Assembly: GCF_000020385.1 (NCBI RefSeq)
Contig: NC_010814.1
Coordinates: forward strand, 1,590,001 to 1,622,000
Direction: 5' to 3'
Length of the DNA stretch: 32,000 bases
Source of the DNA: Trichlorobacter lovleyi SZ
GTDB taxonomy: Bacteria; Desulfobacterota; Desulfuromonadia; Geobacterales; Pseudopelobacteraceae
A program made the translations under genes and the position numbers. This document shows, piece by piece, positions 787 to 32,000 of the stretch. Within the stretch, counting starts at the first letter, position 1. Each line of letters begins with the position of its first letter. Under the pieces are notes generated by a model. It saw only the letters and a program-made list of their open reading frames with translations, was not told the DNA's origin and ran no database searches.

Positions 787-814
787 TGTTGTGATATTGA
801 CATCCCCATCTGTA

Positions 815-2016: not shown

Positions 2017-2116
2017 CGGTTGCTGTGTCGAGTGCCTGTCTGTACAAAATGAGGTGTACGCTTATCAGACAGACCACAGCCTGCTCGCCATGATCCTAAA
2101 TTTAGTTTATAATGAC

Positions 2117-2976: not shown

Positions 2977-3012
2977 GACGACCCTCTAGCTGTTTCAGAG
3001 GGTCGTTTTTTT
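2977..3012 (+). terminator. Rho-independent terminator of the 2216 gene
   Basis: ACGACCCTCT (2978-2987) pairs perfectly with AGAGGGTCGT (2997-3006) across a 9-nt loop. The stem is followed directly by a T-run to 3012. Confidence 0.8.
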
Positions 3013-3065
3013 ACAGTTTCAAGAAAATAGACGCTTGTCTCAACCTCGTTGAGTGTGAGGAAAAT

Positions 3066-3839: not shown

Positions 3840-4063
3840 TAGATTCGCTAATTGCTTTCTTAGTTAGTATGCACTGCTGTCCCATAAATTGATTGAATAA
3901 AATCGGCCTTTGGGCGCATTAAAAACAGGCAAACAAAGTTAAAAAAGAGCTAAAAAACCAGAAACAGCTGAACTGAAAGCAACAAAGCAAACTCATAAAA
4001 CGACCGGTTGGTTGAAATGGACTCAAATCGAGTCGATTTTCAACGGCCTGTTAGAGAGTCTCT

Positions 4064-7693: not shown

Positions 7694-7710
7694 GTAGGAG
7701 TTTTGTATAT

Positions 7711-8526
7711 ATGACCTTTTCCGAAGGTAAAGCACCCCAATATTCCTCCACGTTGCTACGCTCATTCCAGATCCAGCTGCGGGTGATCGGCGCCCTGCTG
7801 ATGCGTGAGGTGCTTACCCGCTATGGCCGCCACAATATCGGTTTTTTGTGGGTATTTGTTGAGCCGATGATTTTTACGTTGGGTGTAACTGCGCTTTGGA
7901 CTTTTGCTAAAATGCATCACAACTCCAGTATTCCGATTGTTGCCTTTGCCGTTACGGGTTATTCTTCAGTGCTGCTGTGGCGTAATATGCCTAACCGTTG
8001 TGTTGGTTCTATAGAGCCTAATCTTGCACTTATGTATCATCGAAACGTAAAGGTTATTGATGTTTTTGCTGCTCGAGTGTTGCTTGAAGCAGTTGGGGCT
8101 TCAACTTCTTTTATTATCTTGTCAGTTGTTTTTATTTCAATTGGCTGGATGCAGTATCCTCAGGATATTTTTAAGGTTCTGACTGGATGGTGCATGTTAG
8201 CATGGTTCGGTGCTTCAATTGCGGTTTTGATGGGAAGTCTCAATGAACGGACAGAAGTTGTTGAAAAACTCTGGCATCCTGCTACTTATCTGCTATTTCC
8301 GTTGTCAGGTGCCGCTTTTATGGTTGATTGGCTGCCTCCCACGGCACAAAAAATTATCCTGTTTTTACCAATGGTGCATGGTGTAGAAATTCTGCGTGAA
8401 GGTTATTTTGGTTCTCTTGTCCGGTCCCACTACAGTATTTCTTATATGGCTTCCGTTTGCTTGATCCTAAATGCACTTGCGCTTGCCCAGGAAAGGTATG
8501 TGAGTAAGAGGATAATCCCAGAATGA
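7711..8526 (+). CDS. kpsM: Capsule polysaccharide ABC transporter permease (ABC-2 type)
   Basis: Multi-TM ABC-2 permease with [24 protein letters not shown] near the N-terminus. The start is set at the ATG at 7711 (AGGAG 10 nt upstream) rather than the GTG at 7660. It overlaps kpsT by ATGA. Confidence 0.85.
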
Positions 8527-9173
8527 TTTGGATTAGAGATGTGGTAAAAAAATATTCTACCCGTCACGGCGTTGTAACTGTGCTTGATAATGTCAATTTG
8601 GACATCAATAAAGGAGAAAAAATTGGGATTTTAGGCAGAAATGGTGCTGGCAAGTCAACTCTTATCAGGCTTATCAGTGGTGCAGAGAAACCCACATCCG
8701 GGACAGTTCATTGGGGCATGAGTATTTCCTGGCCATTAGCTTTTACTGGAGGATTTCAGGGAAGTCTAACCGGATTAGATAATTTGAAGTTTATTTGTCG
8801 CATATATGGCATAGATGCAAGTAGTAAAATAGACTATATACAAGAGTTTTCTGAATTGGGTAGGTATTTGTACGAACCTCTTAAGACTTATTCTTCAGGG
8901 ATGCGTGCACGTTTAGCCTTTGCTCTTTCTATGGCAATTGATTTTGATTGTTTCTTGATTGATGAAGTGGTCGCCGTGGGAGATAGCCGATTTCATGAAA
9001 GGTGTAAACATGAGTTGTTTGAAAAGCGCAAGGAGAAAACCATGATTATTGTGTCACATCAATCCGATTTTATTAAGGCTCATTGTACTCGTGCTGCCGT
9101 GTTAGTAGCTGGTCGGATTCACCAGTTTGAGCAGGTAGATGAGGCTATGTCATTTTATCATGAGCATCTTTAA
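8523..9173 (+). CDS. kpsT: Capsule polysaccharide ABC transporter ATP-binding protein
   Basis: Walker [13 protein letters not shown] signature YSSGMRARL, Walker B CFLIDE and H-loop VSHQ. At 216 aa it has no C-terminal carbohydrate-binding extension. Confidence 0.9.
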
Positions 9174-9203
9174 AACAACTTTTAATGTTGCAAGGATACT
9201 TTG

Positions 9204-13841: not shown

Positions 13842-15617
13842 ATGAAAAATAACAAGACAGATAGAGGTTTTCAATCTCCTCACCGAGTAGCACTGCTTGT
13901 AGCTGGTATGCATAGGAGCGGTACATCCGCTCTTACAAGGATACTCAATCTGCTGGGGGCACAGCTACCCAGTAATCTGTGGCAGCCTCAGGAGGATAAT
14001 GTTACTGGTTTTTGGGAGTCTCAGAATGTTACACGCCTCAATGATGAACTGCTGGCTGAGGCTCATTCCTGTTGGGACAGCATTCTTCCCATTGACTTTA
14101 GTCAGGTGAATCCCGAACAGTTTGAGCTTCTCAGAAGGCGCGCGCAAGATCTTCTCGAGCGGGACTTTGCTGGTTCCTCCTGCTTTGTTATCAAAGACCC
14201 TCGTATGTGTCGACTGCTACCATTTTGGGTTTCTATCTTGAAGGAATGGGAAGTGCAACCCTATGTAATTGTGCCATACCGCCATCCCCTTGAGGTTGCA
14301 GCATCTTTGGCTCAGCGCAATGGCTTTTCACGTGAGAAAAGTATCTATATGTGGCTGCGCTATACGTCAGACATTATAAGACATTCTGCAAACATCCCGC
14401 GAGCAGTAGTCTCCTACAATGATCTTCTGCGTGATTGGCAAAGCACTGTTCAAAATCTTGCCAAAGATCTAGATATCTGCTGGCCTGTGAATATTGAGTC
14501 AATTACTGGAATGGTTGGAGATTTTCTTGATATCCGGATTCGTCATCACAATTTAGACGGTTCTACAGTGGGTAGCGGACGTTTCATCGATCGTCTCGCA
14601 GATCAACTTTATACAGCGTTAAATTCAAAGAGTAAAAAGCTAGCATCTCTTGCTGAGTCAATCAATCAGACACTTACTCCGATGGAACAGGTGCTGGCAC
14701 CCTTTATAGTCAATGAGCCTTCGCAGAAAAAAATGTGGATGCAGCTTTATTTTGATGTGGGTGACGGTTTCGTTGTGAAAGACTCAATCGTGAATATGAT
14801 CAAACCAGAAGAGGTTTCGCAAGAAATCGTTTTTGATCTCGCGGGAAAGGGGCGTCTTAGAGCACTTCGTCTTGACCCGCTCAACGACAGTGTGAGGCTT
14901 GAAATTGAAAGTATCTGTCTCTTTACTGCAGAAGGTGAAATCGATTTGCTTGGTCGAATTAAGTCGAATGCCCGCCTCGTGCTCGGAAACGAGTATTTTT
15001 TTGAGACGTCTGACCCGCAGATCACTTTTGATTGCCTCGGAGAGGTGGAGCTGGCCAATGCAAGACAACTATTTGTTAAGATTCACTTCATTGCTTCCGG
15101 GACCGATGCTGTTTTCCACTCGCTGAGGCAACTTAACATTGAGAAGGATTTACATATCGACCAGCTCTTATCAGAGTTGGGTGATGTGCAACATTTCCTG
15201 ATTCAGGCAAAAGAGAATCGATTGAACGATCCGTCTATTACCAAGGTGGATGCGACTCTCTCGTCAGTAGCCGAAGGTTTAGCAGAACATGCGAAATATC
15301 ATAGTTATCTTCTTGAGCAGACCAGAGTTTTGGATGCGGCATACAAGAAAGAATTTAGTTCAGCAAATAAGTGTCGAGAAGAACTTGCAAATCTTCTTGA
15401 GCAGACCAGAGTTTTGGATGCGGCATACAAGAAAGAATTGAGTTCAGCAAATCAGTACCGAGAAGAAGTTACACTATTACGTAAAAAAATAGATGAACAG
15501 CGAACAGAATTTCAAACGCAGTCATCTGCTCTTTTGCTATTAACTAACCAGGTTGACTACACACATGAAATTATTAAAAACTGGCGAAAATACCATTTGC
15601 TAAAAGATCTTTTGTAA
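13842..15617 (+). CDS. Sulfotransferase (aa ~15-290) plus a beta-rich middle module (aa ~298-420) plus a C-terminal coiled coil (aa ~430-591)
   Basis: 5'-PSB loop VALLVAGMHRSGTSALTRIL and 3'-PB-like VIVPYRHPLEVAASL. The C-terminal third is heptad-like, charged and Leu-rich, and contains a 28-aa tandem duplication. Confidence 0.8.
   Translation: MKNNKTDRGFQSPHRVALLVAGMHRSGTSALTRILNLLGAQLPSNLWQPQEDNVTGFWESQNVTRLNDELLAEAHSCWDSILPIDFSQVNPEQFELLRRRAQDLLERDFAGSSCFVIKDPRMCRLLPFWVSILKEWEVQPYVIVPYRHPLEVAASLAQRNGFSREKSIYMWLRYTSDIIRHSANIPRAVVSYNDLLRDWQSTVQNLAKDLDICWPVNIESITGMVGDFLDIRIRHHNLDGSTVGSGRFIDRLADQLYTALNSKSKKLASLAESINQTLTPMEQVLAPFIVNEPSQKKMWMQLYFDVGDGFVVKDSIVNMIKPEEVSQEIVFDLAGKGRLRALRLDPLNDSVRLEIESICLFTAEGEIDLLGRIKSNARLVLGNEYFFETSDPQITFDCLGEVELANARQLFVKIHFIASGTDAVFHSLRQLNIEKDLHIDQLLSELGDVQHFLIQAKENRLNDPSITKVDATLSSVAEGLAEHAKYHSYLLEQTRVLDAAYKKEFSSANKCREELANLLEQTRVLDAAYKKELSSANQYREEVTLLRKKIDEQRTEFQTQSSALLLLTNQVDYTHEIIKNWRKYHLLKDLL
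15307..15474 (+). repeat. 84-bp in-frame tandem duplication (2 copies) within the coiled-coil tail of the sulfotransferase
   Basis: ATCTTCTTGAGCAGACCAGAGTTTTGGATGCGGCATACAAGAAAGAATT.AGTTCAGCAAAT occurs at 15307 and again at 15391 (offset 84 nt), with about 3 mismatches over the first ~66 nt. The encoded peptides are LLEQTRVLDAAYKKEFSSAN and LLEQTRVLDAAYKKELSSAN. Confidence 0.9.
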
Positions 15618-15707: not shown

Positions 15708-17954
15708 ATGAGCAGCGTGTCCGCTATTGTCAGAAAATTCCAATTTATTTTCATAGCTATATTGGATAATCTCCTTAAACTGGTGCTGTCACGCAAGAAC
15801 CTTTCTGTAAAACTTCTCCCTGAACAAAATATTGTGTCTGACAACGAAAATGGCTGGTGGATTACAAATACTCCTGCGTATTTTGCACTTCAAATTGAGA
15901 ACGGACTCTATCCCCATGGCTGGTTCTATATTGAAGGCGTTCTGCACCGCTACAGCTTGACTAGGGCTAAGCTGTACTACAATGACGGCACCGGGTTCTC
16001 TACAGATAATTATTTTTTCATTCCTGTTACGCGTCGTGGATATATACGTGAAGTGATTTTTCTTCCTTTGGGTGTCATCGGATTGCGTTGGGCGCCGGTA
16101 GATTCATCCGGATTCTTTATCCAACAGAGCTTCTCTATTGCGCGCATTACTTACTTAGAGGCCTTACTGAGGGCTTTATATCGTGTTTTATACGACTTTA
16201 AACGTTTTTTCCGAGTCGCAGAACGTCGAGTAGAGGCTGTTAAAAAGTTGCTACGACCATTATTGCATTTTAAGTTGTGGCAGGCATATCGCAATACCAT
16301 TGATTTTAGAGTTTTTGACACTACGTCTCGCACATGTGATGAATTGTGGCATGCATACCAAGCCTCATTACAACAGCTACTCCCTCAACTGACTACTCAT
16401 GCTCTGTCTTTGAAAGATCATCCTTTGATTTCTGTTGTGGTCTCACTGCCGGAGTTATCCGAAGAAAAGCTTGGTAGTTTGATTTGTTCACTTCAACAGC
16501 AGATTTATCCGCATTGGGAGTTGATTGTCTACAATGATGGTAATGAATTTTGTGACCAGTGTCTTGATATGGGTGTGGATTGCTCTGATACACGTCTGAT
16601 TATTATAAATAGTGAATCAGGTGAAGCATGGAAGAGAGCACAAGGACGTTATATTGTTGTTCTCGGTTCAGATGTTCTCCTTGAACCGCAGGCGCTTTTC
16701 AGAGTAGCCCAGACTTTTACAACAACCAATGCAGGGGTGTTGTATGGCGATGTCGCCCAGGTTGATCCTGAAGGTGAGACGGTGGTTGGGTTTAACTGTC
16801 GTCCTGCCTTTTCACCTGAACTGCTACGCTGCTATCCGTATGTGGATGATCTGTTGGCGTTTGATTGTAGTTTTCCGGAAGGATATAAGCCCCCTGCAGA
16901 TAGTTCTGGACGCTTGATAATTCATGATATGTTGCTGCAGGCATATATAACAGGTGCAGAAGTTGCTCATGTTGCTGAGTTTCTTTGCAAAAAAAAGTAT
17001 CACTCTGAACCTGCTGAGCAGGTCTGTACAACGTATAATCTTAAATCTGATTTACGGGTTGCCATCATCATACCAACAAAAAATGCCGCTGAGTTGGTTA
17101 AGCAGTGCATTGAAAGTCTGGAGCGCACGATTTCGGCAGGTGCTATTCCTTATACGATCATTGTCGTGGATCATGCCTCAGATGACCCTGCTGCGTTGCA
17201 GTATTTCAATGAACTCTCTGAGTTGCATTGTGTATTGCGGTATGAAGGCGATTTTAACTTCTCAACTATCAATAACTGGGCCGTAGGTCAACTAACAGAA
17301 AATTACACCCATTACCTGTTTTGTAATAATGATATCGAAGCGTTTCACAACGGCTGGCTTGAAACTATGCTTGGATTTGGCCAGCAGGATGATGTGGGGG
17401 TTGTTGGTGCACAGCTACTTTATCCAGATAAATTGCATATTCAACATGCTGGTGTTTGTGTTGGTCTGCATGGCCTCGCGGAACATTACGGTAAATTTTT
17501 ATCTACTGATGAGAAATACCGTGAATTGTTACACGCTGATGCACAGATAGCTTTAACGAGCCCCCATGAGGTGTCTGCCGTCACCGCTGCTTGCATGCTT
17601 GTGCGTAGGGATGCATTTGAAAAAGTTGGTGGGTTTGACGAGCAAATGGCTGTTGGTTTTGGTGATGTAGATCTCTGTCTACGGATAGGCGAGGCAGGCT
17701 ACCGGATTATCTATTCGCCAGATAGTTCGTTTGTGCACCATGAATCGCTTACAAGGGGCAAGGATATGGGAGATCCGCATCCTGAAGATACTATTGTTTT
17801 TAAAAAACGCTGGAAATCCTTACTGGAAAATGGCGATCCGTTTTACCATCCCGCTTATTCGTGTTATTCATTTAATTGGCAGTACGTTGATCCGCTGCCA
17901 TGTCGTTTTAGCCCTTCAATTCGGATGGTCTGTAGTATGCGAGGTGTGAGTTGA
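15708..17954 (+). CDS. Large glycosyltransferase: N-terminal beta-rich module plus two GT2-like domains (the first with degenerate motifs); paralog of the 9204 gene
   Basis: The second domain is canonical (LRVAIIIPTKNAAELVKQCIESL...IIVVDHASDD...FCNNDIEA...VSAVTAACML). The first domain is divergent (PLISVVVSLPELSEEKL...ELIVYNDGNE...VLGSDVLL). The C-terminal halves align with the 9204 protein (HAGVCVGLHG / HAGVVLGCRG; DPFYHPAYS / DPYYNRNLS). Confidence 0.8.
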   Translation: MSSVSAIVRKFQFIFIAILDNLLKLVLSRKNLSVKLLPEQNIVSDNENGWWITNTPAYFALQIENGLYPHGWFYIEGVLHRYSLTRAKLYYNDGTGFSTDNYFFIPVTRRGYIREVIFLPLGVIGLRWAPVDSSGFFIQQSFSIARITYLEALLRALYRVLYDFKRFFRVAERRVEAVKKLLRPLLHFKLWQAYRNTIDFRVFDTTSRTCDELWHAYQASLQQLLPQLTTHALSLKDHPLISVVVSLPELSEEKLGSLICSLQQQIYPHWELIVYNDGNEFCDQCLDMGVDCSDTRLIIINSESGEAWKRAQGRYIVVLGSDVLLEPQALFRVAQTFTTTNAGVLYGDVAQVDPEGETVVGFNCRPAFSPELLRCYPYVDDLLAFDCSFPEGYKPPADSSGRLIIHDMLLQAYITGAEVAHVAEFLCKKKYHSEPAEQVCTTYNLKSDLRVAIIIPTKNAAELVKQCIESLERTISAGAIPYTIIVVDHASDDPAALQYFNELSELHCVLRYEGDFNFSTINNWAVGQLTENYTHYLFCNNDIEAFHNGWLETMLGFGQQDDVGVVGAQLLYPDKLHIQHAGVCVGLHGLAEHYGKFLSTDEKYRELLHADAQIALTSPHEVSAVTAACMLVRRDAFEKVGGFDEQMAVGFGDVDLCLRIGEAGYRIIYSPDSSFVHHESLTRGKDMGDPHPEDTIVFKKRWKSLLENGDPFYHPAYSCYSFNWQYVDPLPCRFSPSIRMVCSMRGVS

Positions 17955-19729
17955 TGAGTATCTCCGCACTGTTTACCATAGCCGTTGTTCTGCTCATGTT
18001 GATTGCCCTGGTGCTGGAACTGATTGAAGCGGATGTGATTGTATTTGGTGCCCTTGCAGTTTTATTTATCAGCGGCATCATTACCCCCAAGGAGGCCTTG
18101 GCCGGTTTTTCCAATCAGGGAATGTTGACTGTTGCCATCTTGTTTATTGTCGCATACGCTGCTCAATCAGCCGGATTTATGCAGTTTTTTGCAGATCGTG
18201 TGATGGGCAACGGCAAAGGTGGTGAGGCCCGCTCTTTGTTGAGGATGATGGTTCCTGTTGCCGGTCTTTCGGCTTTTTTGAATAATACCCCCATCGTGGC
18301 CATGTTTACCCCCTACCTGCGGGACTGGTGTCGTCGCAACTACTTTGCTCCTTCAAAGTTTTTAATTCCCTTGTCGTACGCCACTATTTTTGGTGGCGTC
18401 TTTACTTTGATCGGTACCTCGACGAACCTGGTTGTGAGCGGTCTTTACAGCCAGAAGTACGGGGGGCATCTGGGGATGTTTGAGCTTGGTCTGGTTGGTA
18501 TTCCCTGTGGAATTGCAGGAATGTTGTATCTGTACTTTGCCGGGCGGCATCTCTTGCCTGATAATCGTGTTGAAGGCGTTAGCGCGGATGAAGGACGTGA
18601 ATATCTACTTGAAGTCGAGATCGCGGATGCTGCCAGCTTGATTGGCAAGACCGTTGAAGCCGCCGGATTGCGCAATCTTGAACAGTTGTATATGGTTGAG
18701 ATCGTTCGCAATAACAAACGGATTGCGCCGGTTAAGCCACAGGAATATCTGCAAACGGGTGATCGCCTTATTTTTACCGGTAAGGTGGAAGGGGTAGCTC
18801 AATTGCAGAAAATTGGTGGGTTGCGGCCAGTACATGGACATAACCTGCATCAGGAGCTGTTACAGAATGGTGAGGCCAGACTGGTTGAGGTGGTTGTGTC
18901 TCCTTCTTGTCCCATGCTGGGCAAAACTATCAAAGAAGGGAACTTTCGGGCACGCTACGATGCTGCAGTGCTGGCGGTACATCGACATGGTGAGCGTTTA
19001 AGGGGCAAGTTGGGAGAACTGGTGCTGAGGCCGGGTGATACTCTGCTGCTACTTACTGGCGATGACTTTATCAAACGTTGGAATTTCTCCCGAGAATTCT
19101 ACTTGGTATCCAAAATTAGCAACCTCCCTCGGGTTAACCGTAAAAAATCAATCATTACTTTTTGTGCCTTAGTTGCAATGGTAGCACTTTCCGCAGCGGG
19201 TTTGATGGATATCTTAGAGGCTGCCGTACTTGCAACACTTGTATTGTTGTTTACACGGTGCATTACAACAGTTGAGGCTCGGCGATCAATTGAACTGAAC
19301 GTGTTGATTGTGATTGCTTCTTCCTTTGGTATCAGTAAAGCACTGGAGAAAACCGGGGCTGCTGCCTGGCTGGCGGATCAAATTATTGGCTCTGTGGAAC
19401 AATGGGGAGCGGTCGGGGTTTTAGCTGCCATTTGCCTGATAACAACCATATTAACAGAGGTGATTACCAATAATGCTGCTGCTGCGGTTATCTTCCCGAT
19501 TGCCATGGCATCGGCTCATCAGTTACAGGTTGATCCAAAACCGTTTGTGATCGCTATTGCCATTTCGGCTTCGGCCAGTTTTGCCACCCCAATCGGTTAC
19601 CAGACCAATATGATGGTATATGGTCCTGGTGGCTATCGTGCAAAAGATTTTTTAAAGGTCGGCGTTCCACTTAATATTATATATATGGTTGTGTCGATTC
19701 TTGTTATCCCGCTTTTCTGGAAGTTTTAG
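17954..19729 (+). CDS. SLC13/DASS-family anion permease with two central TrkA-C domains (putative sulfate importer)
   Basis: About 10-12 hydrophobic helices flank two TrkA-C-like units ([22 protein letters not shown]...GDRLIFTG and [22 protein letters not shown]...GDTLLLLTG). Its ATG overlaps the upstream TGA (TGATG). It sits directly upstream of cysD. Confidence 0.8.
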
Positions 19730-19757
19730 TTGCTGTTATTTCGGAGCCATAACTGAC

Positions 19758-20663
19758 ATGTACCTTAATATGACCCATCTGCGCCAGCTTGAGTCCGAAA
19801 GCATTCATATTATTCGCGAAGTTGTCTCAGAATGTGAAAATCCGGTCATGCTCTATTCGATTGGCAAAGATTCTTCGGTTATGTTGCATCTGGCGTTGAA
19901 GGCCTTTTACCCTGCAAAACCATCATTTCCTTTAATGCATATTGATACCACCTGGAAGTTTCGAGAGATGATTAGCTTCAGGGACCAAATGGCGTCAGAG
20001 TATGGCTTTGATCTGCTGGTACATATCAATCAGGATGGCGTTGATCAAGGGATCAGTCCGTTTAAGCATGGTTCAGCGCTCTATACGGATATTATGAAAA
20101 CGGAGGGACTCAAGCAGGCGTTGAGCAAATACAAGTTTGATGCAGCCTTTGGTGGAGCACGCAGGGATGAAGAAAAATCAAGGGCTAAAGAACGGATTTT
20201 TTCTTTTCGTAGCGCGAACCATGGTTGGGACCCCAAGAACCAGCGTCCAGAATTATGGAACCTATACAACACCCGCGTCAATCCAGGAGAGAATATTCGA
20301 GTTTTTCCACTCTCAAATTGGACTGAACTTGATGTCTGGCAGTACATCTATCTTGAGCAGATCCCAATTGTACCGCTTTATTTTGCCAAACAGCGTCCGG
20401 TAGTGAAGCGAAATGGCATGCTAATACTGCTTGATGATGAGCGACTGAAGCTGCAGCCTGGTGAACAGGTGCAGATGAAGCCGGTTCGGTTCCGTACGCT
20501 AGGCTGTTATCCTTTGACGGGAGCAATAGAGTCTACTGCAGCGACTTTGCCTGAGATCATTCAGGAAATGCTGCTGACCAGAACTTCTGAGAGACAAGGG
20601 CGTCTGATTGACCACGATCAGGCCGGATCTATGGAAAAGAAAAAGCAAGAGGGCTATTTCTGA
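19758..20663 (+). CDS. cysD: Sulfate adenylyltransferase subunit 2
   Basis: [18 protein letters not shown], the PP-loop-like [14 protein letters not shown], and a C-terminal [12 protein letters not shown] all closely match CysD as I remember it. The start is set at the ATG at 19758 (19770 is also possible) instead of 19689, which overlaps the permease. Confidence 0.9.
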
Positions 20664-22606
20664 TGTCCCATCGACCCAATCCCATAGCCTCTGATATCAA
20701 TGCTCACCTGAAAAGCCAGGAAGAGAAGGGAATGCTGCGCTTTGTCACTTGTGGCAGTGTTGACGATGGGAAAAGTACCTTGATAGGGCGCTTGCTATGG
20801 GACTCTAAGCTGATCTTTGAAGATCAGCTTACTGCCTTGGAAGCAGATAGTAAACGGGTCGGGACGCAAGGGGGAGAGATTGATTATGCCCTTCTGCTGG
20901 ATGGTCTGCAGGCAGAGCGTGAGCAGGGTATCACTATCGATGTTGCTTATCGCTTTTTCTCAACGGACAAGCGCAAGTTTATAGTTGCGGATACGCCGGG
21001 TCATGAACAGTACACTCGTAACATGGTTACTGGTGCTTCTACTGCGGATGTTGCCGTGATTCTGGTTGATGCCCGGAAGGGGGTGTTGACACAAACCAGG
21101 CGGCACAGCTATCTGGTCTCTTTAATGGGAATCCGTCAGGTGGTTCTGGCTGTTAACAAGATGGATCTGGTGAATTTTTCTGAATCCTGTTTTCAGGCTA
21201 TTCGTGAGGAATACGAGTCTTTTGCTGCCGGTTTGGGGTTTACCTATATCACGTCTATCCCAATTTCAGCTCTTCAGGGCGATAATGTCATCGGTGCAGC
21301 GACTCCGTCTAAAACCCTTCCAGCCTCCAGTTTGCATCCTTCATCCTCCGGCTCAAACATGCCGTGGTATGATGGTCCAACTTTAATGGAGTATCTGGAA
21401 ACTGTTGATGCTGTGCATGACACTTTGAACCAGCCGTTCAGGATGCCGGTGCAGTGGGTTAATCGCCCAAATCTTGATTTCCGCGGGTTCTGCGGGACGC
21501 TCGCCTCAGGTCGGGTGCGGCTTGGTGATGAGATTGTCGTGGCTGCTTCAGGTAAGACCAGCCGGGTGGCACGGATTGTAACCATGGACGGCAACCTTGA
21601 TCAGGCAGATGCTGGACAGGCGGTTACACTTATGCTTGAAGACGAAATTGATATCAGCCGTGGTGATCTTTTGGCAGATCCATCGGCTCGTCCTGCATTT
21701 GCTGATCAATTAGAGGCTTGTATTGTCTGGATGTGTGAAAACGCATTGATGGCTGGTCGCAAATATCTTCTGAAAAGTGGCTGCAGTACTGTTCCTGCAG
21801 CAGTAAGTGCTCTTAAATACAAGATTAATGTTAATTCATTGCAGCATGAACCGGCAAAAAGACTGGAGTTGAATGAAATAGGGGTCTGTAATCTGGTGCT
21901 GGACAGACCGATCACCTTTGATCCCTATTGTGAGAATCACACTACCGGTAGTTTTATCCTGATCGACCGTATCAGTAATGCAACCGTTGGTGCCGGTATG
22001 ATTAATTTTGCCTTGCGTCGGGCAACAAACGTACATTGGCATACAGAACAGGTTACACGCGATATCCGGGCCGGTTTGATGGGGCAGTCTCCCCGTGTTA
22101 TCTGGCTGACCGGGCTTTCCGGTTCCGGTAAGTCTACCATTGCCAATGCTCTTGAACAGAGGCTTGTACAGCTTGGAAGGCATACCATGCTGTTGGATGG
22201 AGATAATATCCGCCACGGTTTAAATAAGGATCTTGGTTTTACCGAGGCGGACAGGATTGAGAACATCAGGCGTATCGGTGAGGTGGCCAAGTTAATGACC
22301 GAGGCTGGTCTTGTTGTTATTACCGCCTTTATTTCGCCGTACCGTGCCGAGCGTGAGATGGTGCGTAATCTGCTTCCAGAAGATGAGTTTATCGAGGTGC
22401 ATGTCAGCACTTCTCTGGAAGAGTGTGAGCGGCGTGATGTCAAGGGGCTGTATAAGAAAGCACGTATGGGGAGTATTCCTAACTTTACCGGAATCAGTGC
22501 TCCCTATGAGGAGCCGGTGTCGCCAAGTCTTGTGATTGATACTGAGCTGGTTGCTGTTGAAGAGGCTGTGGACAGGATTCTTGAATCCATTGGTTTCAAC
22601 CGCTAA
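20663..22606 (+). CDS. cysNC: Bifunctional sulfate adenylyltransferase subunit 1 (GTPase) / adenylylsulfate (APS) kinase
   Basis: GTPase motifs [17 protein letters not shown] and NKMD. The C-terminal APS kinase has P-loop GLSGSGKST and [16 protein letters not shown]. The start overlaps the cysD stop (TGATG). Confidence 0.9.
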
Positions 22607-26126: not shown

Positions 26127-27353
26127 ATGGAGCTGCGTCGTTTTCTGTTGTTACAGGGGGTTTGCTCCCCTTTTTTTGCCTGTCTGGCAGAGCGGTTGAT
26201 CCGAGAAGGACACCGCGTTCATAAAATCAACTTTAATGGTGGTGATGCTGCCTATTGGCGGGGGATGCCTGCCCGGTCATTTCGTGGACCGGTTACTGAC
26301 TTGCCTGTTTTTCTTAAAAGTACGTTTCAGGAACATCAGATCAGCGATATTGTCCTGTTTGGTGATCGGCGCCCTGTCCATACATCCGCTGTACAACTGG
26401 CACAATCAAGCAGCATTCGTGTCCATGTCTTTGAGGAAGGGTATTTCCGTCCCCATTGGGTGACCCTTGAGCGGGACGGGGTGAATGCCCATTCCCTGCT
26501 GCCCCGTGATCCTGTCTGGTATCGCGAAATTGGTAAACAGCTTGGTGATAGTCTTGTCACAGAGCCATTTCAGACAACCCTCCGAATCAGGGCCACCCAT
26601 GATGTCCTCTATCACCTCGCAAGTGCTGTCAATCCGCTGCTGTATCCAGGGTATCGCACCCATGCGCCTTGCATTGCACCGCTCATGTATGCCGGCTATG
26701 TCCGGCGTTTTGCCCTGAAGCCGCTGCATGAACGACGAGATACTGTGCTTGTCAATCAGTTGATCAGTTCACAAACTCCCTATTATCTCCTGCCGTTACA
26801 GCTGAACAGTGATGCCCAGATTCGTGATCACTCAAACTTCAAAGATATGGCTGATGTGATGGCCTTTGTGATGGCTTCGTTTGCCCTGCATGCGCCTGCA
26901 GGCAGCCGCTTGGTGATCAAGAATCATCCGCTTGATATGGGTCTGGTCAACTATCCACGCATCATTGCAGAACTTGAGGCACATTACGGTGTTACCGGCA
27001 GGGTAGACTACCTGGAAACCGGTAACCTTGAGGCTCTGGTGCAGCATGCCCGGGGAACAGTTACGGTTAACAGCACGGTGGGTGGGGTTGCATTACAGTA
27101 CAGCTGCCCCACCATAACGCTCAGTGATCCGATCTATAATCTGGCTGGCCTGACCTTTCAGGGAGAGCTGGATAGCTTCTGGCAGCATGCAGAACCGCCT
27201 GATCAGGAGCTGTTCCGCTGTTTTAAGGCAACAGTAATTCAGTCCACCCAGATTAACGGAGGTTTTTACTGCGTCCGTGGAATTGATCTGGCAGTGAAAA
27301 ATTCCATTAACCGTTTAACTGCTGATTGCTCTCCACTTGAGGAGTTGTTGTGA
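26127..27353 (+). CDS. kpsS: KpsS/LipB-like capsule beta-Kdo transferase (initiates the lipid-linked Kdo linker)
   Basis: FLLLQGVCSPFF...INFNGGDAAYW, VLFGDRRPVH, VFEEGYFRPHWVTLERDGVNAHSLLPRDP, QxxxD (LQLNSDAQI) and HP (IKNHPLD) motifs. Confidence 0.85.
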   Translation: MELRRFLLLQGVCSPFFACLAERLIREGHRVHKINFNGGDAAYWRGMPARSFRGPVTDLPVFLKSTFQEHQISDIVLFGDRRPVHTSAVQLAQSSSIRVHVFEEGYFRPHWVTLERDGVNAHSLLPRDPVWYREIGKQLGDSLVTEPFQTTLRIRATHDVLYHLASAVNPLLYPGYRTHAPCIAPLMYAGYVRRFALKPLHERRDTVLVNQLISSQTPYYLLPLQLNSDAQIRDHSNFKDMADVMAFVMASFALHAPAGSRLVIKNHPLDMGLVNYPRIIAELEAHYGVTGRVDYLETGNLEALVQHARGTVTVNSTVGGVALQYSCPTITLSDPIYNLAGLTFQGELDSFWQHAEPPDQELFRCFKATVIQSTQINGGFYCVRGIDLAVKNSINRLTADCSPLEELL

Positions 27354-28117
27354 GCTGGGCCCAGCCAAAAACGATTCTGATTACCGGTGCAACCGGTGCC
27401 ATTGGCAGCGCATTAGCTGAACAGTATGCTACTTCTGGCGTGACACTGCTTCTGTTTGGGCGTGACGAGTTGAAGCTTGGACAGTTGGCAGGTCGTTGCC
27501 GGAGCCTGGGCGCACAGGTTGTGACACTCGTCTGTGATCTGGCCGATCATCGTTGTTTTATGGAGCAATTACAGCAGATCTGTGAACAAAACTGCCCGGA
27601 TCTGGTGATTGCCAATGCCGGTGTCAGTAGCACCGCTGATAAGGATGGTGAGTCCTGGCAGGCGATTGAAGAGGTGGTGGCGGTAAATATGTTGGCTGCC
27701 ATGGCTACGGTGCAGATGGTTGTTCCGTTCATGCGGCAGCAGGGCAGGGGACAGATCGCCCTGATCAGCTCGCTGGCTGCCTGGTACGGCCTGCCGGTTA
27801 CCCCGGCATACTCTGCCAGTAAGGCAGCCATCAAGAACTATGGCGAAGCGTTGCGTGCCGGCCTTGCCCCTGAGGGAATCAGCGTGTCGGTTGTCATGCC
27901 CGGCTTTGTCAGTTCTGCCATGTCCCGCACCGTGCCAGGCCCAAAACCGTTTCAGATGAGTGCAGAACAGGCTGCACAAGCCATTAGCAAGGGCCTGGTA
28001 AAAGGCTGTTCCCGGATCAGCTTCCCGTTTCCGCTTAATCTGGGCTGCTGGGTGCTGGCTGTGCTGCCTTCAGCACTGTCCGGTTGGTTGGTCAAGAGGC
28101 TGGGCTACCGTGCATAA
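27350..28117 (+). CDS. Short-chain dehydrogenase/reductase (classical SDR) with hydrophobic C-terminal tail
   Basis: TGATGAIGSALA (TGxxxGxG), NAGV, the catalytic YSASK, and PGFVSS. The GTG start overlaps the kpsS stop (GTGA). Confidence 0.85.
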   Translation: MSWAQPKTILITGATGAIGSALAEQYATSGVTLLLFGRDELKLGQLAGRCRSLGAQVVTLVCDLADHRCFMEQLQQICEQNCPDLVIANAGVSSTADKDGESWQAIEEVVAVNMLAAMATVQMVVPFMRQQGRGQIALISSLAAWYGLPVTPAYSASKAAIKNYGEALRAGLAPEGISVSVVMPGFVSSAMSRTVPGPKPFQMSAEQAAQAISKGLVKGCSRISFPFPLNLGCWVLAVLPSALSGWLVKRLGYRA

Positions 28118-29657
28118 AGCGTTGTTAATCAGTATCGGCCTGCCGCTTGCCTGTTGCCTTACCTTCTCGTTTGCGCTGGAACTGCTGTTGGTCCCTCGCC
28201 CTGTCTGGCCGTGGCAACGTCCGGTGGTCGCCGTAATGTTGCACAAGGGTCTCTGTCTGCTTTTGTTTGCCCCGCTGCTTCTGTTGCTTCAACGCCCATG
28301 GTTCTGCTGTATCAGCATCCTGGCCCTGCAGGTTCTGGTGATAATGATCAGTAACGCCAAATATCACTCTCTGCAGGAACCGTTCATTTATCAGGATTTC
28401 AGCTATTTTGTCGATGCCCTGCGCTTTCCCCGGCTCTATCTGCCGTTTCTCGGGGCAGGACGGGCTGTGGTAGCCGCTGTTGCCTTTTGCGCTGCCATCT
28501 ATGGCGGTCTGGTGGTGGAGCAACCGCTTCATGCGGTGTACTCTTTTCGACAGATCAGTGGCGTGGCAGCGGTTTTAATCGGCGCCGGTTTGCTGTTGGT
28601 GTTACTTGGGGCCTCTGTCTGGTCAAGATTGAGCCTTGATCCGGTTATAGATCTGCAACAGCTGGGGCTGTTTGCCAGCCTTTGGGGCTATTGTCGGGCA
28701 GAGCAACAGACCTGGTCCGGTTACGCCAATCCTGTTTTCAGTCAAATCCCGGGCCAGCAGATAACCTCAACGCTGCCCAATCTGGTGGTAATCCAGAGTG
28801 AATCCTTTTTTGATCCCCGGCGCTGGTATGATGGAATAACGCCTGATCTGTTGCGCCATTTTGATGCTCTGAAGCAATCCTCGGTCAGTTTTGGCCTGCT
28901 GGAGGTACCGGCCTGGGGGGCCAACACCGTACGCACGGAATTTGCCTTCCTCTCCGGCATTGCCAATCATCTGCTCGGTATCCACCGTTTCAAGCCGTAT
29001 CGTCGGGTAGCACGCCAGGGGCTGCCAACGCTGCCGGGCTATCTCAAGAAACTTGGCTACCGTACGGTCTGTCTGCATCCGTATTCGTCCGGTTTTTATG
29101 ATCGCAAGACCGTCTTTCCACTCTTGGGGTTTGATGAATTTATTGATATCTCACGCTTTGTTGCTGCTGATTACAACGGCCAGTATGTGGGGGATGCTGC
29201 TGTCGGGCGGGTGCTTTGCGCAGAGCTGGCAAAACATGATGGTCCGGGTACTCAACCGCTTTTTATCTTCGTGATTACCATGGAGAATCATGGTCCTTTG
29301 CATCTTGAACAGCTCAGGCCGGAAGAACAGGAACCACTGCTGACCACTCCGTTGCCTGAGGGAGCTGATGATCTGCCAGTCTACCTGCGTCATCTTGCAC
29401 AGGCAGATCAGATGCTGGGTGTGGTGAAAGAGCAACTGACAGCCATGCGGCACGATGCTTGGCTCTGTCTCTACGGGGATCATCTGCCGATCATGCCGCA
29501 GGTTTACCGGCAACTGGGCGAACCGGATGGCACGGTGGATTATCTGGTCTGGGGAAACCGGCATCAGCAGGCGGGTACTCATGAGGTGCGTTTAGAGGTG
29601 GAACAGCTGGCACAGGAACTGTTGAAAAAATCCGGTCTGATGAAGGGGCTTGCATGA
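28110..29657 (+). CDS. LtaS/MdoB-like membrane protein: N-terminal polytopic domain plus sulfatase-fold (AlkP superfamily) transferase domain
   Basis: About 5 N-terminal TM helices, then LPNLVVIQSESFFDPR, WGANTVRTEFAFLSG (candidate nucleophile Thr), FVITMENHGP and LYGDHLP. The GTG start overlaps the SDR gene by 8 nt. Confidence 0.7.
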   Translation: MHKALLISIGLPLACCLTFSFALELLLVPRPVWPWQRPVVAVMLHKGLCLLLFAPLLLLLQRPWFCCISILALQVLVIMISNAKYHSLQEPFIYQDFSYFVDALRFPRLYLPFLGAGRAVVAAVAFCAAIYGGLVVEQPLHAVYSFRQISGVAAVLIGAGLLLVLLGASVWSRLSLDPVIDLQQLGLFASLWGYCRAEQQTWSGYANPVFSQIPGQQITSTLPNLVVIQSESFFDPRRWYDGITPDLLRHFDALKQSSVSFGLLEVPAWGANTVRTEFAFLSGIANHLLGIHRFKPYRRVARQGLPTLPGYLKKLGYRTVCLHPYSSGFYDRKTVFPLLGFDEFIDISRFVAADYNGQYVGDAAVGRVLCAELAKHDGPGTQPLFIFVITMENHGPLHLEQLRPEEQEPLLTTPLPEGADDLPVYLRHLAQADQMLGVVKEQLTAMRHDAWLCLYGDHLPIMPQVYRQLGEPDGTVDYLVWGNRHQQAGTHEVRLEVEQLAQELLKKSGLMKGLA

Positions 29658-30478
29658 GCCCCTCAGCCAAGCTGCGGATCATTTTCTGCACTACCCCCAG
29701 CATTTATTCAGATGTTGTTTTGCAGGAGCTTGTCAAATCTCCCCACGTGCAACTGGTGGGAGTGGTCGCCTCAACCCGGATTTTACGTAAAAACGGCTGG
29801 GGCTGGTGGGATGCTGTACGACTGGTGCGCAAGACCGGACTGCGTTACGCAACCTATCTCTGGACGGTAACAACGCTGTATAGTCTGTTGCGCCGTCTGT
29901 TGGTACCTGATGATCCGGTCAGGCAACATCTGCGAGAGCACCGGGTGCCGGTGCATGCCACCCGGGACATTAACAGCAGCGAGGGAGTTACTTTTGTTCA
30001 AAACCTGCAACCGGATCTGTTGCTGTCCGCCCACTTTAATCAGCTGATCGGATCTGTGTTGCTTGATCTGCCATCAGTTGGTTGTCTGAATATTCACCCC
30101 GGAGCGTTGCCGCAGTACAAGGGGGTTGATCCGGTGATTCATGCTCTGGACAGAGATGAACAGCGGGTGGGAGTGACACTGCATGTCCAGGATACCGGTT
30201 TTGATACCGGTGCAGTTCTTGCCTCGGCTGAAGCTGCAGTAGCTGCGGAAGATACGTTGTTTTCTGTAACTATGCGGCTTTTCAGGCGGGGGACAGGCCT
30301 GCTGCTTGATTGTCTGGCAGCGCATGGAGCTGTCTTGGAAGGGACTCCACAAGAAGCTGACGCTGCCTATGATTCATGGCCGGATAGCGGTTTGGTGGGG
30401 CGGCTGAGGAGCTCTGGCAGGAGGTTAATAGGTGTAAGGTTGTTTTGGGTTTGTCTACGGGGCAACAGCCTGGAATAA
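29654..30478 (+). CDS. Formyltransferase-family protein (Fmt/ArnA N-terminal-domain-like)
   Basis: The Formyl_trans_N catalytic triad context is present: LLLSAHFNQLIG (Asn) and CLNIHPGALPQYKGVDPVIHAL (His, Asp). The canonical Fmt C-terminal domain is not evident. It overlaps the upstream gene by ATGA. Confidence 0.65.
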   Translation: MSPSAKLRIIFCTTPSIYSDVVLQELVKSPHVQLVGVVASTRILRKNGWGWWDAVRLVRKTGLRYATYLWTVTTLYSLLRRLLVPDDPVRQHLREHRVPVHATRDINSSEGVTFVQNLQPDLLLSAHFNQLIGSVLLDLPSVGCLNIHPGALPQYKGVDPVIHALDRDEQRVGVTLHVQDTGFDTGAVLASAEAAVAAEDTLFSVTMRLFRRGTGLLLDCLAAHGAVLEGTPQEADAAYDSWPDSGLVGRLRSSGRRLIGVRLFWVCLRGNSLE

Positions 30479-30488
30479 CGTCACCTGT

Positions 30489-31826
30489 TCAGATCTCTTC
30501 CGCAAGGATGGCAACGGTTTTCCTGATCTGCTCTTCCGTATGCAGGCATGAGATGAAAAAACGCAGCCGTGCAGATTTCTCCGGCACTGCTGGATAGATG
30601 ATCGGCTGAACATTAATGCCACGCTCAAAGAGCGCCTCAGCAAGCCGGGCAGCCTTCAGAGAACTGCCGGTAATTGCCGGTATGATGGCAAGTCCGGCGC
30701 TGCTGCCGGTATTGATCCCTGCCTCCTGTGCCAGTTTTAAAAAAAGTTGGCCCCGCGCTTTCAAGGTTGCTGTAAGTTCAGGTGTTTGACGTATAAGCTC
30801 AAGGGCTGCCAGTGACGAGGCAGCAACTGAAGGCGGCATGCCGACACTGTAGAGAAAGCCGGGAGCAAGGAACTTGAGATGTTCGATCAGTGCGGTTTCC
30901 CCTGCGATATAGCCACCACACCCTGCCAGTGCCTTGCTTAACGTCCCCATCCAGATATCAACGTCGCTCCCCTGCAAAGCAAAATGTTCCCGAATGCCAA
31001 GTCCTTTTTCTCCCATAATGCCGAACGAATGGGCTTCATCCACCATCAAAAAGGCGCAATAGCGTTTTTTTATCTCAACAAAAGCAGGCAGATCGGGATA
31101 ATCGCCATCCATGCTGTAGATTCCTTCAAGTACGATCAATACCCGTTCAAACTGGTGTCGTTGATTTTTCAGGATCTGATCCAGAGCGGTATAATCATTG
31201 TGGGGAAATGACAGCCGTTTGGCGCCTGAAAGCTGTATACCCTGCAGGATACTGTTGTGAATCAGTTCATCGTGGAGTACGAGATCTTTGGGGCCGAACA
31301 GGTAACCGATGGTGGATACGTTGGTGGCGTGACCACTGACAAATGCAATGGCATCATCAACCTGATAGGTCTCTGCAAGGGCTTTTTCAAGTTGCCGGTG
31401 GACAGGACGTTCCCCTGATACGGGGCGGCTGGCAGAAACAGAGGTGCCGTACTGGTCAATCGCCTGTTTGGATGCTTCGGCCACTGCGGGGTGGCCCACA
31501 AGCCCAAGATAGTTGTAGCTGGAATAGTTGATGTATTCTTTGCCGTTAATAACCGTGGTGGCGCCTGCAATACCTTCATGCAGTTTAAAAAAAGGATTGC
31601 TGATGCCAAGACGGACACCGCCATCATTTATTATGCGGAGTTGCTGATAACCGGGATGCAGATGAAAACGATAGAATTTTTCAGGAATTGTTGCTGACTC
31701 TGGTCGTGTGCTGCCGCTTGTAGCGGTTTCCTGGCGTTCTGCAGTTTGTAACCGCCGCTCAAGAGCCTGCAAAATCAGTGCATCTTTAAGTTGGGCGGTA
31801 AGTCCGTGCAATCCTTTACGAGGCAT
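30489..31826 (-). CDS. PLP-dependent alpha-oxoamine synthase family acyltransferase (AONS / serine palmitoyltransferase / RkpG-like) with a ~50-aa N-terminal extension
   Basis: INYSSYNYLGL, SGHATN, DEAHSFG and the PLP-lysine motif GTLSKALAGCGGY. It converges on the formyltransferase-like gene with 10 nt between the stop codons. Confidence 0.85.
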   Translation of the reverse strand: MPRKGLHGLTAQLKDALILQALERRLQTAERQETATSGSTRPESATIPEKFYRFHLHPGYQQLRIINDGGVRLGISNPFFKLHEGIAGATTVINGKEYINYSSYNYLGLVGHPAVAEASKQAIDQYGTSVSASRPVSGERPVHRQLEKALAETYQVDDAIAFVSGHATNVSTIGYLFGPKDLVLHDELIHNSILQGIQLSGAKRLSFPHNDYTALDQILKNQRHQFERVLIVLEGIYSMDGDYPDLPAFVEIKKRYCAFLMVDEAHSFGIMGEKGLGIREHFALQGSDVDIWMGTLSKALAGCGGYIAGETALIEHLKFLAPGFLYSVGMPPSVAASSLAALELIRQTPELTATLKARGQLFLKLAQEAGINTGSSAGLAIIPAITGSSLKAARLAEALFERGINVQPIIYPAVPEKSARLRFFISCLHTEEQIRKTVAILAEEI

Positions 31827-31827
31827 A

Positions 31828-32000
31828 TTACTGGATCATCCTTTTTTCGTCCGTTGCTGGAGTAGCATACACATCATGTACAATCTGCTCAATAATCTCC
31901 TCCGTGACCTCTGCGCCATGCTGAGAAACCGCCTGCTGAACCGATGCAACAGTTTCCTGGTGCGTACTGTTTTCAGCAATATCCCGGGATGAGGAAAGCT
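31828..32000 (-). CDS. 3' end of an unidentified gene that continues beyond the window
   Basis: The reverse-strand frame is open from the window edge (...LSSSRDIAENSTHQETVASVQQAVSQHGAEVTEEIIEQIVHDVYATPATDEKRMIQ*). Its TAA (31828-31830) lies 1 nt upstream of the alpha-oxoamine synthase ATG, which suggests co-transcription. It is missing from the ORF track because it has no start within the window. I recognise no motif. Confidence 0.45.
   Translation of the reverse strand, partial: LSSSRDIAENSTHQETVASVQQAVSQHGAEVTEEIIEQIVHDVYATPATDEKRMIQ

Follow-up and report, generated by a model that had tools for sequence, protein, structure and literature searches.

The stretch considered here, 32,000 nt from Trichlorobacter lovleyi SZ and called the window below, carries a capsule cluster, and the genes at its right-hand end (26127 to 32000) belong to a known but poorly understood class of lipid modules. 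Five open reading frames (ORFs) lie there: a KpsS-type β-Kdo (3-deoxy-D-manno-octulosonic acid) transferase, a classical short-chain dehydrogenase/reductase (SDR), a sulfatase-fold membrane enzyme, a stand-alone formyltransferase-fold protein (FT) and, on the opposite strand, an α-oxoamine synthase (AONS). All five are present where they had been predicted, each with a strong Pfam match (Table 1). The locus is a Geobacteraceae member of the rkp-1/wcbOPQRT capsule lipid module with one additional gene, that encoding FT. The module itself is already known; what is new is FT, a conserved and previously undescribed component.

Gene organization and the core module

The stop codon of the upstream kpsC gene (TAA) directly abuts the ATG of kpsS, kpsS and the SDR gene share a GTGA overlap, the SDR and wcbQ-like genes overlap by 8 nt, and the wcbQ-like and FT genes overlap at an ATGA. 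FT and AONS are convergent, with 10 nt between their stop codons. At the edge of the window, the end of a type I polyketide synthase (PKS) gene meets the AONS gene in the arrangement TAA-T-ATG, which leaves a single nucleotide between stop and start. Contig JBNLSA010000027.1 (assembly GCA_050171295.1) shares 11,512 nt with the window at 100% identity, and the closest named relatives of the locus are found in an uncultured Geobacter metagenome-assembled genome (MAG) and in Trichlorobacter thiogenes. Since these genes are also syntenic in Desulfuromonadota (Geobacteraceae), in a Desulfobulbaceae MAG and in Alpha-, Beta- and Gammaproteobacteria, chance ORFs are ruled out.

Table 1. Coordinates of the genes and other features discussed; positions refer to the window unless another locus is named.
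Feature	Position	Strand	Match or remark
Single-module KpsC-like β-Kdo transferase, 367 aa	25023-26126	+	PF05159, E = 2.7e-32; context gene
KpsS/RkpJ/WcbO-type β-Kdo transferase, 408 aa	26127-27353	+	PF05159, E = 1.6e-78
Classical SDR, WcbP/RkpH counterpart, 255 aa	27350-28117	+	adh_short, E = 4.7e-40
RkpI/WcbQ-type sulfatase-fold membrane enzyme, 515 aa	28110-29657	+	PF00884, E = 2.6e-37
Stand-alone formyltransferase-fold protein (FT), 274 aa	29654-30478	+	PF00551, E = 1.4e-21
RkpG/WcbT-type AONS, pyridoxal phosphate (PLP)-dependent, 445 aa	30489-31826	-	PF00155, E = 8e-47
3' end of RkpA/WcbR-type type I PKS/fatty acid synthase (FAS), last 57 codons and stop	31828-32000	-	gene runs past the window
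Sulfation-related genes	13842-15617, 17951-22606, 3066-3839		inside the capsule cluster
S-adenosylmethionine (SAM) methyltransferase fused to a second sulfatase-fold domain, 492 aa	4064-5542		PF00884, E ~1e-7
Low-GC stretch	3001-5000		GC 0.35
VanZ-like ORF and PAP2-family phosphatase	581-2016		upstream of the capsule genes
RkpI ORF, Sinorhizobium meliloti (L043), 512 aa	14305-15843		PF00884
AONS-like protein, Bacillus mycoides plasmid p357 (L047), 494 aa	11665-13149		
DgkA-type diacylglycerol kinase (L002)	1702-2040		outside the window, divergent from the PKS
FT, CDP-alcohol phosphatidyltransferase and SDR, metagenomic locus (L056)	7699-9997		
KpsS, WcbQ, SDR and hydroxylase-family genes, Novosphingobium plasmid (L060)	11942-16507		
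The same set, Novosphingobium plasmid (L061)	17801-22395		
Second two-module KpsC-like protein (709 aa) and PhyH-family dioxygenase, Pseudomonas plasmid (L044)	17011-20173		between GNAT and AONS

The original prediction had proposed extending the contig to look for a PKS upstream of the synthase. Fourteen public contigs carry an identical synthase; five of these reach far enough upstream, and a sixth cuts the ORF at its end. On all five, the AONS is preceded by, and coupled to, a 2,547-aa type I PKS. It is a single module with the domain order KS-AT-DH-(655 aa)-ER-KR-ACP and intact active-site motifs. No thioesterase domain was found in it, and no significant Pfam domain in the 655-aa interval between DH and ER or in the 59-aa C-terminal tail, which gave just two sub-threshold matches. 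Over its full length, the PKS is 34% identical to RkpA, 41% to its Paraburkholderia counterpart and 48% to that of a Pseudomonas plasmid. The PKS and AONS genes are adjacent in all 25 loci of the FT family that have both, and also in five loci without FT (L043, L044 and L051–L053), while in Paraburkholderia and Caballeronia an LpxC-like gene intervenes.

The AONS carries the motif GTLSKA and is 49% identical to RkpG, 55–58% to the WcbT counterparts of the Burkholderiaceae (58% in Paraburkholderia) and 67% to that of the Pseudomonas plasmid. Its identity is 48–89% to RkpG/WcbT-type proteins as against 33–36% to annotated Kbl, BioF and HemA, and within the plasmid collection the gap is clean, with 49% or more on one side and 36% or less on the other. 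In a neighbor-joining tree it groups inside the RkpG/WcbT clade, apart from Kbl, BioF and HemA, and the members of this clade have in common an extra N-terminal stretch of about 85 aa not found in those three. Serine palmitoyltransferase (SPT), CqsA and cysteate acyltransferase lie outside the scope of the tree and are represented by scores against PDB structures and NCBIfam models. The AONS falls below every NCBIfam equivalog cut-off, including those for bioF, Kbl, 5-aminolevulinate synthase, CqsA-type enzymes and three SPT models (292.7, 270.3 and 213.4 bits against cut-offs of 640, 500 and 670). Among solved structures, a broad-specificity Thermus enzyme, Kbl and bacterial SPT all score 207–217 bits. 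We know of no sequence code that reliably predicts the amino-acid substrate in this family.

An ordinary BioF, serving biotin synthesis and lying beside a capsule cluster by accident, would explain why the bioF model (TIGR00858) is the best NCBIfam match of the AONS, at 347.8 bits. However, that score is under the bioF cut-off of 426.45, E. coli BioF ranks below Kbl and SPT in the PDB search with 167 bits, and no bio genes are found within 10 kb of the AONS, whose neighbors are the PKS and FT. At every locus examined it is coupled to the PKS rather than to bio genes. The score cut-offs, the gap in identity, the place in the tree and the gene neighborhood all speak against the biotin reading, which is rejected and given next to no chance; the synthase is not BioF, as had been predicted.

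A further relative of the AONS is encoded on Bacillus mycoides plasmid p357. This protein is 49% identical to that of the window and has an apparent N-terminal ACP-like segment with a GLDS motif. Its neighbors are glycosyltransferase, methyltransferase and ABC transporter genes, a ketosynthase and a phosphopantetheinyl transferase. The clade thus has a relative in a Gram-positive bacterium, in other genetic surroundings.

The kinship with rkp-1, also proposed at the outset, is borne out by one-to-one BLASTP matches to S. meliloti RkpA, RkpG, RkpH, RkpI and RkpJ. In the PLSDB entry, rkp-1 lies on a 3.72-Mb replicon and consists of rkpA (a PKS of 2,502 aa), rkpG (a PLP enzyme), rkpH (an SDR), a 512-aa ORF and rkpJ (KpsS-like). 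The entry (L043, CP090106.1) is deposited as S. meliloti Ak57 “plasmid pSymB”; at 3.72 Mb and with both rkp-1 and secD, it looks like the chromosome. Both regions thus encode the same five protein types: a single-module PKS of about 2,500 aa with the AONS directly downstream, an SDR, a sulfatase-fold protein and a KpsS-like transferase. They differ in that all rkp-1 genes are co-directional in the order A-G-H-I-J, whereas the window has two convergent operons; the identities are modest (24–49%), and rkp-1 has neither FT nor another N-modifying gene. The host here is also a member of the Geobacteraceae, and its capsule cluster includes sulfation genes. According to PMC4881576, the rkp-1 region is reported to be needed for the K polysaccharide (KPS), or K-antigen, and a lipid carrier has been proposed as its product.

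The 512-aa ORF is absent from the distributed gene table. It is RkpI, and it carries the same sulfatase-fold domain (PF00884) as the window protein, with which it aligns over almost the entire length (by BLASTP, 475 aa at 26% identity, E ~1e-34). For this reason, the LtaS-like enzyme is not an extension of rkpGHIJ, as the original prediction had it, but the RkpI/WcbQ member of the core module. Of the two supposed extensions, only FT is additional. “LTA (lipoteichoic acid) synthase family” genes of the WcbQ type hold the same position in the Paraburkholderia, Caballeronia and Pseudomonas loci; the window protein is 39% identical to the Paraburkholderia and 46% to the Pseudomonas one. A further “LTA synthase” match, on a Roseomonas plasmid, turned out to be an unrelated stand-alone paralogue and was set aside.

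The SDR in turn is 43% and 52% identical to the Paraburkholderia and Pseudomonas SDRs in the WcbP position and 24% identical to RkpH (E = 5e-16); it probably acts as a ketoreductase. KpsS is 39% identical to RkpJ, 45% to the Paraburkholderia protein and 50% to that of the Pseudomonas plasmid, and it scores 291.3 bits against the NCBIfam KpsS equivalog NF050054, short of the cut-off of 600.

The wcb loci were compared by way of homologous Paraburkholderia and Caballeronia plasmid loci rather than B. pseudomallei itself. These share a translationally coupled run of KpsS, SDR and “LTA synthase family” genes (in Caballeronia without KpsS), as well as the type I PKS and AONS, and the window proteins are 39–58% identical to the Paraburkholderia ones. 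They differ in the LpxC-family deacetylase gene between PKS and AONS, which from its place in the gene order we take to be wcbS, in the lack of FT and, in Paraburkholderia, in a GNAT gene after the AONS. The wcbQ, wcbS and wcbT genes were hits in a transposon sequencing study of a lung model (PMC4631991). For the module genes of the window, genetic support for a role in the capsule comes from such homologues only. The sulfated-capsule cluster of Cobetia marina combines kpsSC, genes for synthesis of 3'-phosphoadenosine 5'-phosphosulfate (PAPS), sulfotransferases and a “wcbPQRT” lipid-carrier operon (PMC11766843), which is the same combination as in the window.

The group 2 capsule systems of E. 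coli and Neisseria likewise have KpsS- and KpsC-family Kdo transferases beside KpsD, KpsE, KpsM and KpsT, presumably with the same role in Kdo priming. E. coli, however, relies on a housekeeping phospholipid and lacks PKS, AONS, SDR and LtaS-like genes; in addition, the window KpsS is below the equivalog cut-off, and the window KpsC has one module where that of E. coli has two. Our literature searches found no paper that determines the lipid made by the rkpA/G/H/I/J or wcbO-T genes, and nothing on recent biochemistry of WcbT, WcbR or RkpG. A review of capsule attachment (PMC12220298) does not discuss the module.

The formyltransferase family and the accessory slot

FT scores 77.5 bits against PF00551, whose gathering cut-off is 26.1. 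Its AlphaFold model has a pLDDT (predicted local distance difference test) of 93.2, and the top Foldseek matches are Fmt, ArnA and WbkC, with E values down to 4.5e-19 and TM-scores of about 0.6–0.66. FT is nevertheless below the equivalog cut-offs of all three kinds of known enzyme (85 against 201.5 for fmt, 75 against 777 for ArnA and 49 against 238 for dTDP-sugar formyltransferases), and it has no Formyl_trans_C match, the C-terminal domain of Fmt and ArnA being missing. Residues N146, H148 and D184 are invariant in 32 family members and fall within the NxH...D stretch that aligns with Fmt and WbkC; from what is known of Fmt and PurN, we take them to be the catalytic triad. Two helices, at residues 50–61 and 63–83, fall in a part of FT for which the solved formyltransferases matched by sequence have no equivalent. 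The first, strongly amphipathic and with many Trp and Arg residues, is possibly a membrane-surface element. FT is presumably an N-formyltransferase acting on a lipid amine.

The proteins of this family are about 270 aa long, and at E ≤ 1e-30 an exhaustive profile search gave 655 representative clusters. In reference genomes, 36 FT loci were found by a scan, in Geobacteraceae, Thiotrichaceae (Thiothrix, Thiolinea and Cocleimonas), some Pseudomonadota MAGs without classification and one MAG of the Stappiaceae; the module of Methylobacterium bullatum also includes a divergent copy. BLASTP found no FT homologue in the rkp-1, Paraburkholderia or Pseudomonas loci. At 34 of 40 FT loci, at least one module gene is located within 6 kb of FT: AONS and PKS at 25 each, the SDR at 21, and KpsS and WcbQ at 20 each. 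Five of the six loci without a nearby module gene are on contigs of 8 kb or less.

This linkage persists in at least four gene orders. In the Geobacter type, KpsC-KpsS-SDR-WcbQ-FT converges with AONS-PKS, while at one locus (L011) all module genes are co-directional. In the Thiothrix type, KpsC-PKS-AONS-FT converges with WcbQ-SDR-KpsS, and at another locus (L057) PKS-AONS-WcbQ-FT converges with SDR-KpsS. Cocleimonas and related Thiotrichaceae MAGs have PKS-AONS-FT, with no SDR, WcbQ or KpsS in up to 10 kb of downstream flank. That FT stays linked through such rearrangements argues that it works with the lipid genes rather than in the synthesis of repeat-unit sugars, and the conserved linkage suggests that the lipid of the module carries an amine.

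Lineages without FT often have another gene in the corresponding slot, that is, beside WcbQ or AONS. A GNAT gene overlaps the WcbQ stop on the Pseudomonas plasmid; Paraburkholderia has the LpxC-family deacetylase and the GNAT already mentioned, Caballeronia the LpxC-family deacetylase, Comamonas endophytica a 2-oxoacid_dh-type acyltransferase abutting the AONS, and the Desulfobulbaceae MAG a 308-aa protein without assigned family. The slot is empty in S. meliloti and in a metagenomic locus (L053). Four of the five identifiable slot families add or remove acyl groups, and amine or amide nitrogen is the target of three types, GNAT, formyltransferase and LpxC. The pattern is suggestive, being what would be expected if the product of the module bears an amine that is modified differently by lineage. 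On the same Pseudomonas plasmid, a second two-module KpsC-like protein and a PhyH-family dioxygenase are encoded between GNAT and AONS.

A candidate lipid anchor and its alternatives

These genes could together make an anchor for the capsule: a PKS-derived amino-alcohol lipid that is N-modified, supplied with a phospho-head group and then glycosylated with Kdo. As a reading of the gene content, we consider this proposal about as likely to be right as wrong. Its first step would be the building of a long saturated acyl chain by the single-module, fully reducing type I PKS/FAS, on its own ACP and without a thioesterase. The coupled AONS would then condense the chain with an amino acid, left unspecified here, in a PLP-dependent decarboxylative Claisen reaction that frees it as a long-chain α-amino ketone. 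In a third step, the SDR would reduce the ketone to an amino alcohol, a sphingoid-like base. Fourth, FT would N-formylate the amine from N10-formyl-tetrahydrofolate; since a free amine is required by the synthase, the condensation would have to come first, and other lineages apparently use a GNAT or other acyltransferase or skip the step. Fifth, and more speculatively, the RkpI/WcbQ enzyme would put a phospho-alcohol head group, most likely glycerol phosphate from phosphatidylglycerol (PG), on a lipid hydroxyl, producing a PG-like acceptor. The third to fifth steps are numbered without a fixed order. Finally, KpsS would add the first β-Kdo and the single-module KpsC would extend it, after which the polysaccharide would be built on this primer and exported. 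The amino-lipid anchor, the N-formylation and the LtaS-like addition of a head group would all be consistent with the comparative patterns described above.

The scheme resembles bacterial ceramide synthesis, in which a synthase, an N-acyltransferase and a reductase (Spt, bCerS and CerR) act (PMC11087976), in that both involve condensation by an AONS-family enzyme, N-acylation of the amine and ketoreduction. The analogy is functional only. The window synthase fails the three SPT cut-offs, its acyl donor would be a dedicated PKS, and the N-modifying enzyme would be a formyltransferase. The reductase is a classical SDR, whereas CerR is described as homologous to NDUFA9 of mitochondrial Complex I (PMC11087976).

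The head group would be the work of the sulfatase-fold enzyme. Like LtaS, GacH and OpgB, it has five transmembrane (TM) segments, found as N-terminal hydrophobic stretches in the window protein and family-wide, and after them a sulfatase-fold domain in which the metal-binding Glu, the Thr nucleophile and the Asp-His metal ligands are conserved. Among 123 homologues, RkpI being one, 122–123 keep the residues E231, T273, H394, D457 and H458 (no exception for E231 and T273; 122 for D457 and H458). The best solved relative of the domain is the GacH phosphoglycerol transferase (E = 1.7e-16), followed by LtaP and LtaS. By homology, the RkpI/WcbQ-type enzyme is probably a transferase of phospho-head groups, namely phosphoglycerol. 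It differs from LtaS in its low score against the LtaS equivalog NF053595 (24.4 bits, cut-off 970) and in a charge distribution that predicts the opposite topology.

The metagenomic locus L056 offers a variant on this theme. It has no WcbQ-like gene; the WcbQ place, between FT and the SDR, is occupied by a CDP-alcohol phosphatidyltransferase (32 bits, cut-off 22), and a 450-aa protein without Pfam match is encoded upstream of FT. CDP-alcohol phosphatidyltransferases, an enzyme type of another kind, likewise put phospho-alcohol head groups on lipids; the case is a single one.

A diacylglycerol kinase of the DgkA type, which could recycle the diacylglycerol freed by a PG-using transferase, is encoded about 300 nt past the PKS start. 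It was dropped as support, because the adjacency occurs only in contigs of this organism and is absent from the closest relatives (L007 and L008) and from all other loci.

Several points weigh against the amino-lipid anchor. The characterized termini in this capsule class are (lyso)PG-Kdo, and the KPS of S. meliloti 1021 has been reported with a “phospholipid anchor”. The anchor of S. meliloti KPS is a phosphoglycerol with a hydroxy fatty acid and is not known to be an amino lipid. Neither S. meliloti nor L053 has an N-modifying gene, so N-acylation is not obligatory, and the LpxC-like slot enzyme works in the opposite direction, removing acyl groups. The identity between the SDR and RkpH is just 24%, and the CDP-alcohol transferase was seen at one locus only. 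Loss of wcbR is reported to reduce capsular polysaccharide I (CPS-I), not to abolish it (PMC3735121), so the module may be auxiliary.

The side of the membrane on which WcbQ acts presents a further difficulty. By the positive-inside rule, 123 WcbQ homologues (mean K+R of 7.98 against 2.45) favor an N-out/C-in arrangement, whereas homology to LtaS argues for C-out. The charges thus imply a cytoplasmic catalytic domain and the homology a periplasmic one, and if the domain is periplasmic, the lipid would need to flip back to reach KpsS in the cytoplasm. With a cytoplasmic domain, every step up to KpsS would take place on the cytoplasmic face; otherwise the lipid would flip twice. A sixth TM segment, which would reconcile the charge bias with a periplasmic domain, was looked for and is not present family-wide, a hydrophobic stretch occurring there in 2% of the sequences. 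The predicted cytoplasmic position is the opposite of that in LtaS, EptA and GacH, and K84 and E90, in the loop between TM3 and TM4, are invariant.

Much of this would be accommodated if the module is real and required for the capsule, while its product is not an amino-lipid Kdo acceptor and KpsS still uses a PG-type lipid. The PKS might then supply a special long fatty acid for a glycerophospholipid anchor, or the module might make a separate membrane lipid or carrier that aids export. The known (lyso)PG-Kdo termini, the phospholipid anchor of S. meliloti, the “lipid carrier involved in secretion” described in PMC4881576 and the partial effect of wcbR loss reported in PMC3735121 all fit, as do the Novosphingobium loci treated below, which function without PKS or AONS nearby. 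Against this stands the AONS, which is encoded 1 nt downstream of a PKS without thioesterase and has no obvious role there but condensation with an amino acid. The KpsS-SDR-WcbQ block also co-localizes with PKS-AONS in several phyla, and the slot is mostly filled by enzymes that act on amine or amide nitrogen. We regard such a non-acceptor product as unlikely, though still to be taken seriously.

Alternatively, FT and the LtaS-like enzyme might decorate the polysaccharide, with an N-formyl amino sugar in the repeat unit and glycerol phosphate on the sugar chain. The sugar N-formyltransferases WbkC and ArnA are among the nearest solved relatives of FT, GacH modifies a cell-wall polysaccharide, and the Cobetia capsule bears glycerol phosphate that its authors linked to WcbQ (PMC11766843). 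However, WcbQ/RkpI stays with the module across clusters of quite different glycosyltransferase content. B. pseudomallei CPS-I is not known to contain glycerol phosphate though WcbQ/RkpI is present, which also counts against the idea. FT tracks PKS-AONS or WcbQ through at least four rearrangements, its Trp/Arg-rich amphipathic helical insertion is missing from the solved formyltransferases matched by sequence, and no sugar aminotransferase or 4,6-dehydratase, as an amino-sugar pathway would include, is encoded in the window. Decoration of the polysaccharide thus appears improbable.

Returning to the amino-lipid anchor, a variant on three Novosphingobium plasmids (L060–L062) may be relevant to the origin of the base. 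These carry KpsS, WcbQ, an SDR and a fatty-acid-hydroxylase-family gene, together with KpsC and Kdo-synthesis genes and, in one case, a sulfotransferase. No AONS is found within 14–20 kb of these loci, and no PKS nearby beyond one weak 26% partial match (L062). A PhyH-family dioxygenase in L060 and L061 is 43% identical to the one at the Pseudomonas plasmid locus. The genus Novosphingobium makes sphingolipids. One reading, which we offer as a lead, is that PKS and AONS supply a sphingoid-like base where the host has none, and that Novosphingobium uses its own. That the observation comes from just three related plasmids tells against leaning on it.

Carried further, many environmental and host-associated Gram-negative bacteria might anchor their ABC-transporter capsules on a dedicated PKS-derived, sphingoid-like amino-alcohol phospholipid in place of PG. 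According to lineage, the amine would bear a formyl, acetyl or other acyl group or stay free, the phospho-head group would come from an LtaS-like enzyme with a cytoplasmic catalytic domain, in contrast to all its characterized relatives, so that the whole acceptor pathway would run on the inner face of the membrane, and Novosphingobium would feed its own long-chain base into KpsS, SDR and WcbQ. This wider picture is a speculation that we think doubtful as a whole, rather more apt to fail than to hold.

The importance of the rkpA/G/H/I/J and wcbO-T genes in symbiosis and in melioidosis virulence has been recognized for a long time. The amino-lipid proposal predicts that the lipid contains nitrogen and has a phospho-alcohol head group, and that its mass differs by formyl versus acetyl between lineages with FT and those with GNAT. 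Cultured carriers of the FT variant include Trichlorobacter thiogenes ATCC BAA-34 and Thiothrix eikelboomii ATCC 49788. Were the proposal correct, a widespread class of capsules would have a second kind of lipid anchor and bacteria a new amino-lipid pathway, which might also offer a new target in Burkholderia.

The surrounding capsule cluster

The remainder of the window is an ABC-transporter-dependent capsule cluster with KpsM/T-like ABC genes, a KpsE-like gene, KpsD, several glycosyltransferases and the single-module KpsC. It also includes CysD, a CysN-CysC fusion, an SLC13/CitMHS-type transporter with TrkA-C domains and two sulfotransferase-family genes, and the presence of these sulfation genes within the cluster implies a sulfated polysaccharide.

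Compared with the two-module form, the window KpsC, a single module of about 350 aa, is closest to the C-terminal (β-2,7) module (48.5% identity to residues 307–640 of the Pseudomonas plasmid protein), and no second KpsC module was found in the window. Comamonas, Methylococcaceae and metagenomic loci (L051, L053 and L054) also have the block KpsD-GT4-KpsC(single)-KpsS-SDR-WcbQ, where the GT4 glycosyltransferase is 52–54% identical to that of the window. The Kdo linker and the conserved GT4 may depart from the E. coli model.

Two other observations concern the left part of the window. The ORF that joins a SAM methyltransferase domain to a second sulfatase-fold domain lies inside a stretch whose GC content is well below that of the rest of the window. 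Further upstream, next to a VanZ-like ORF, is the PAP2-family phosphatase, an enzyme of a kind that could act on lipid phosphate.

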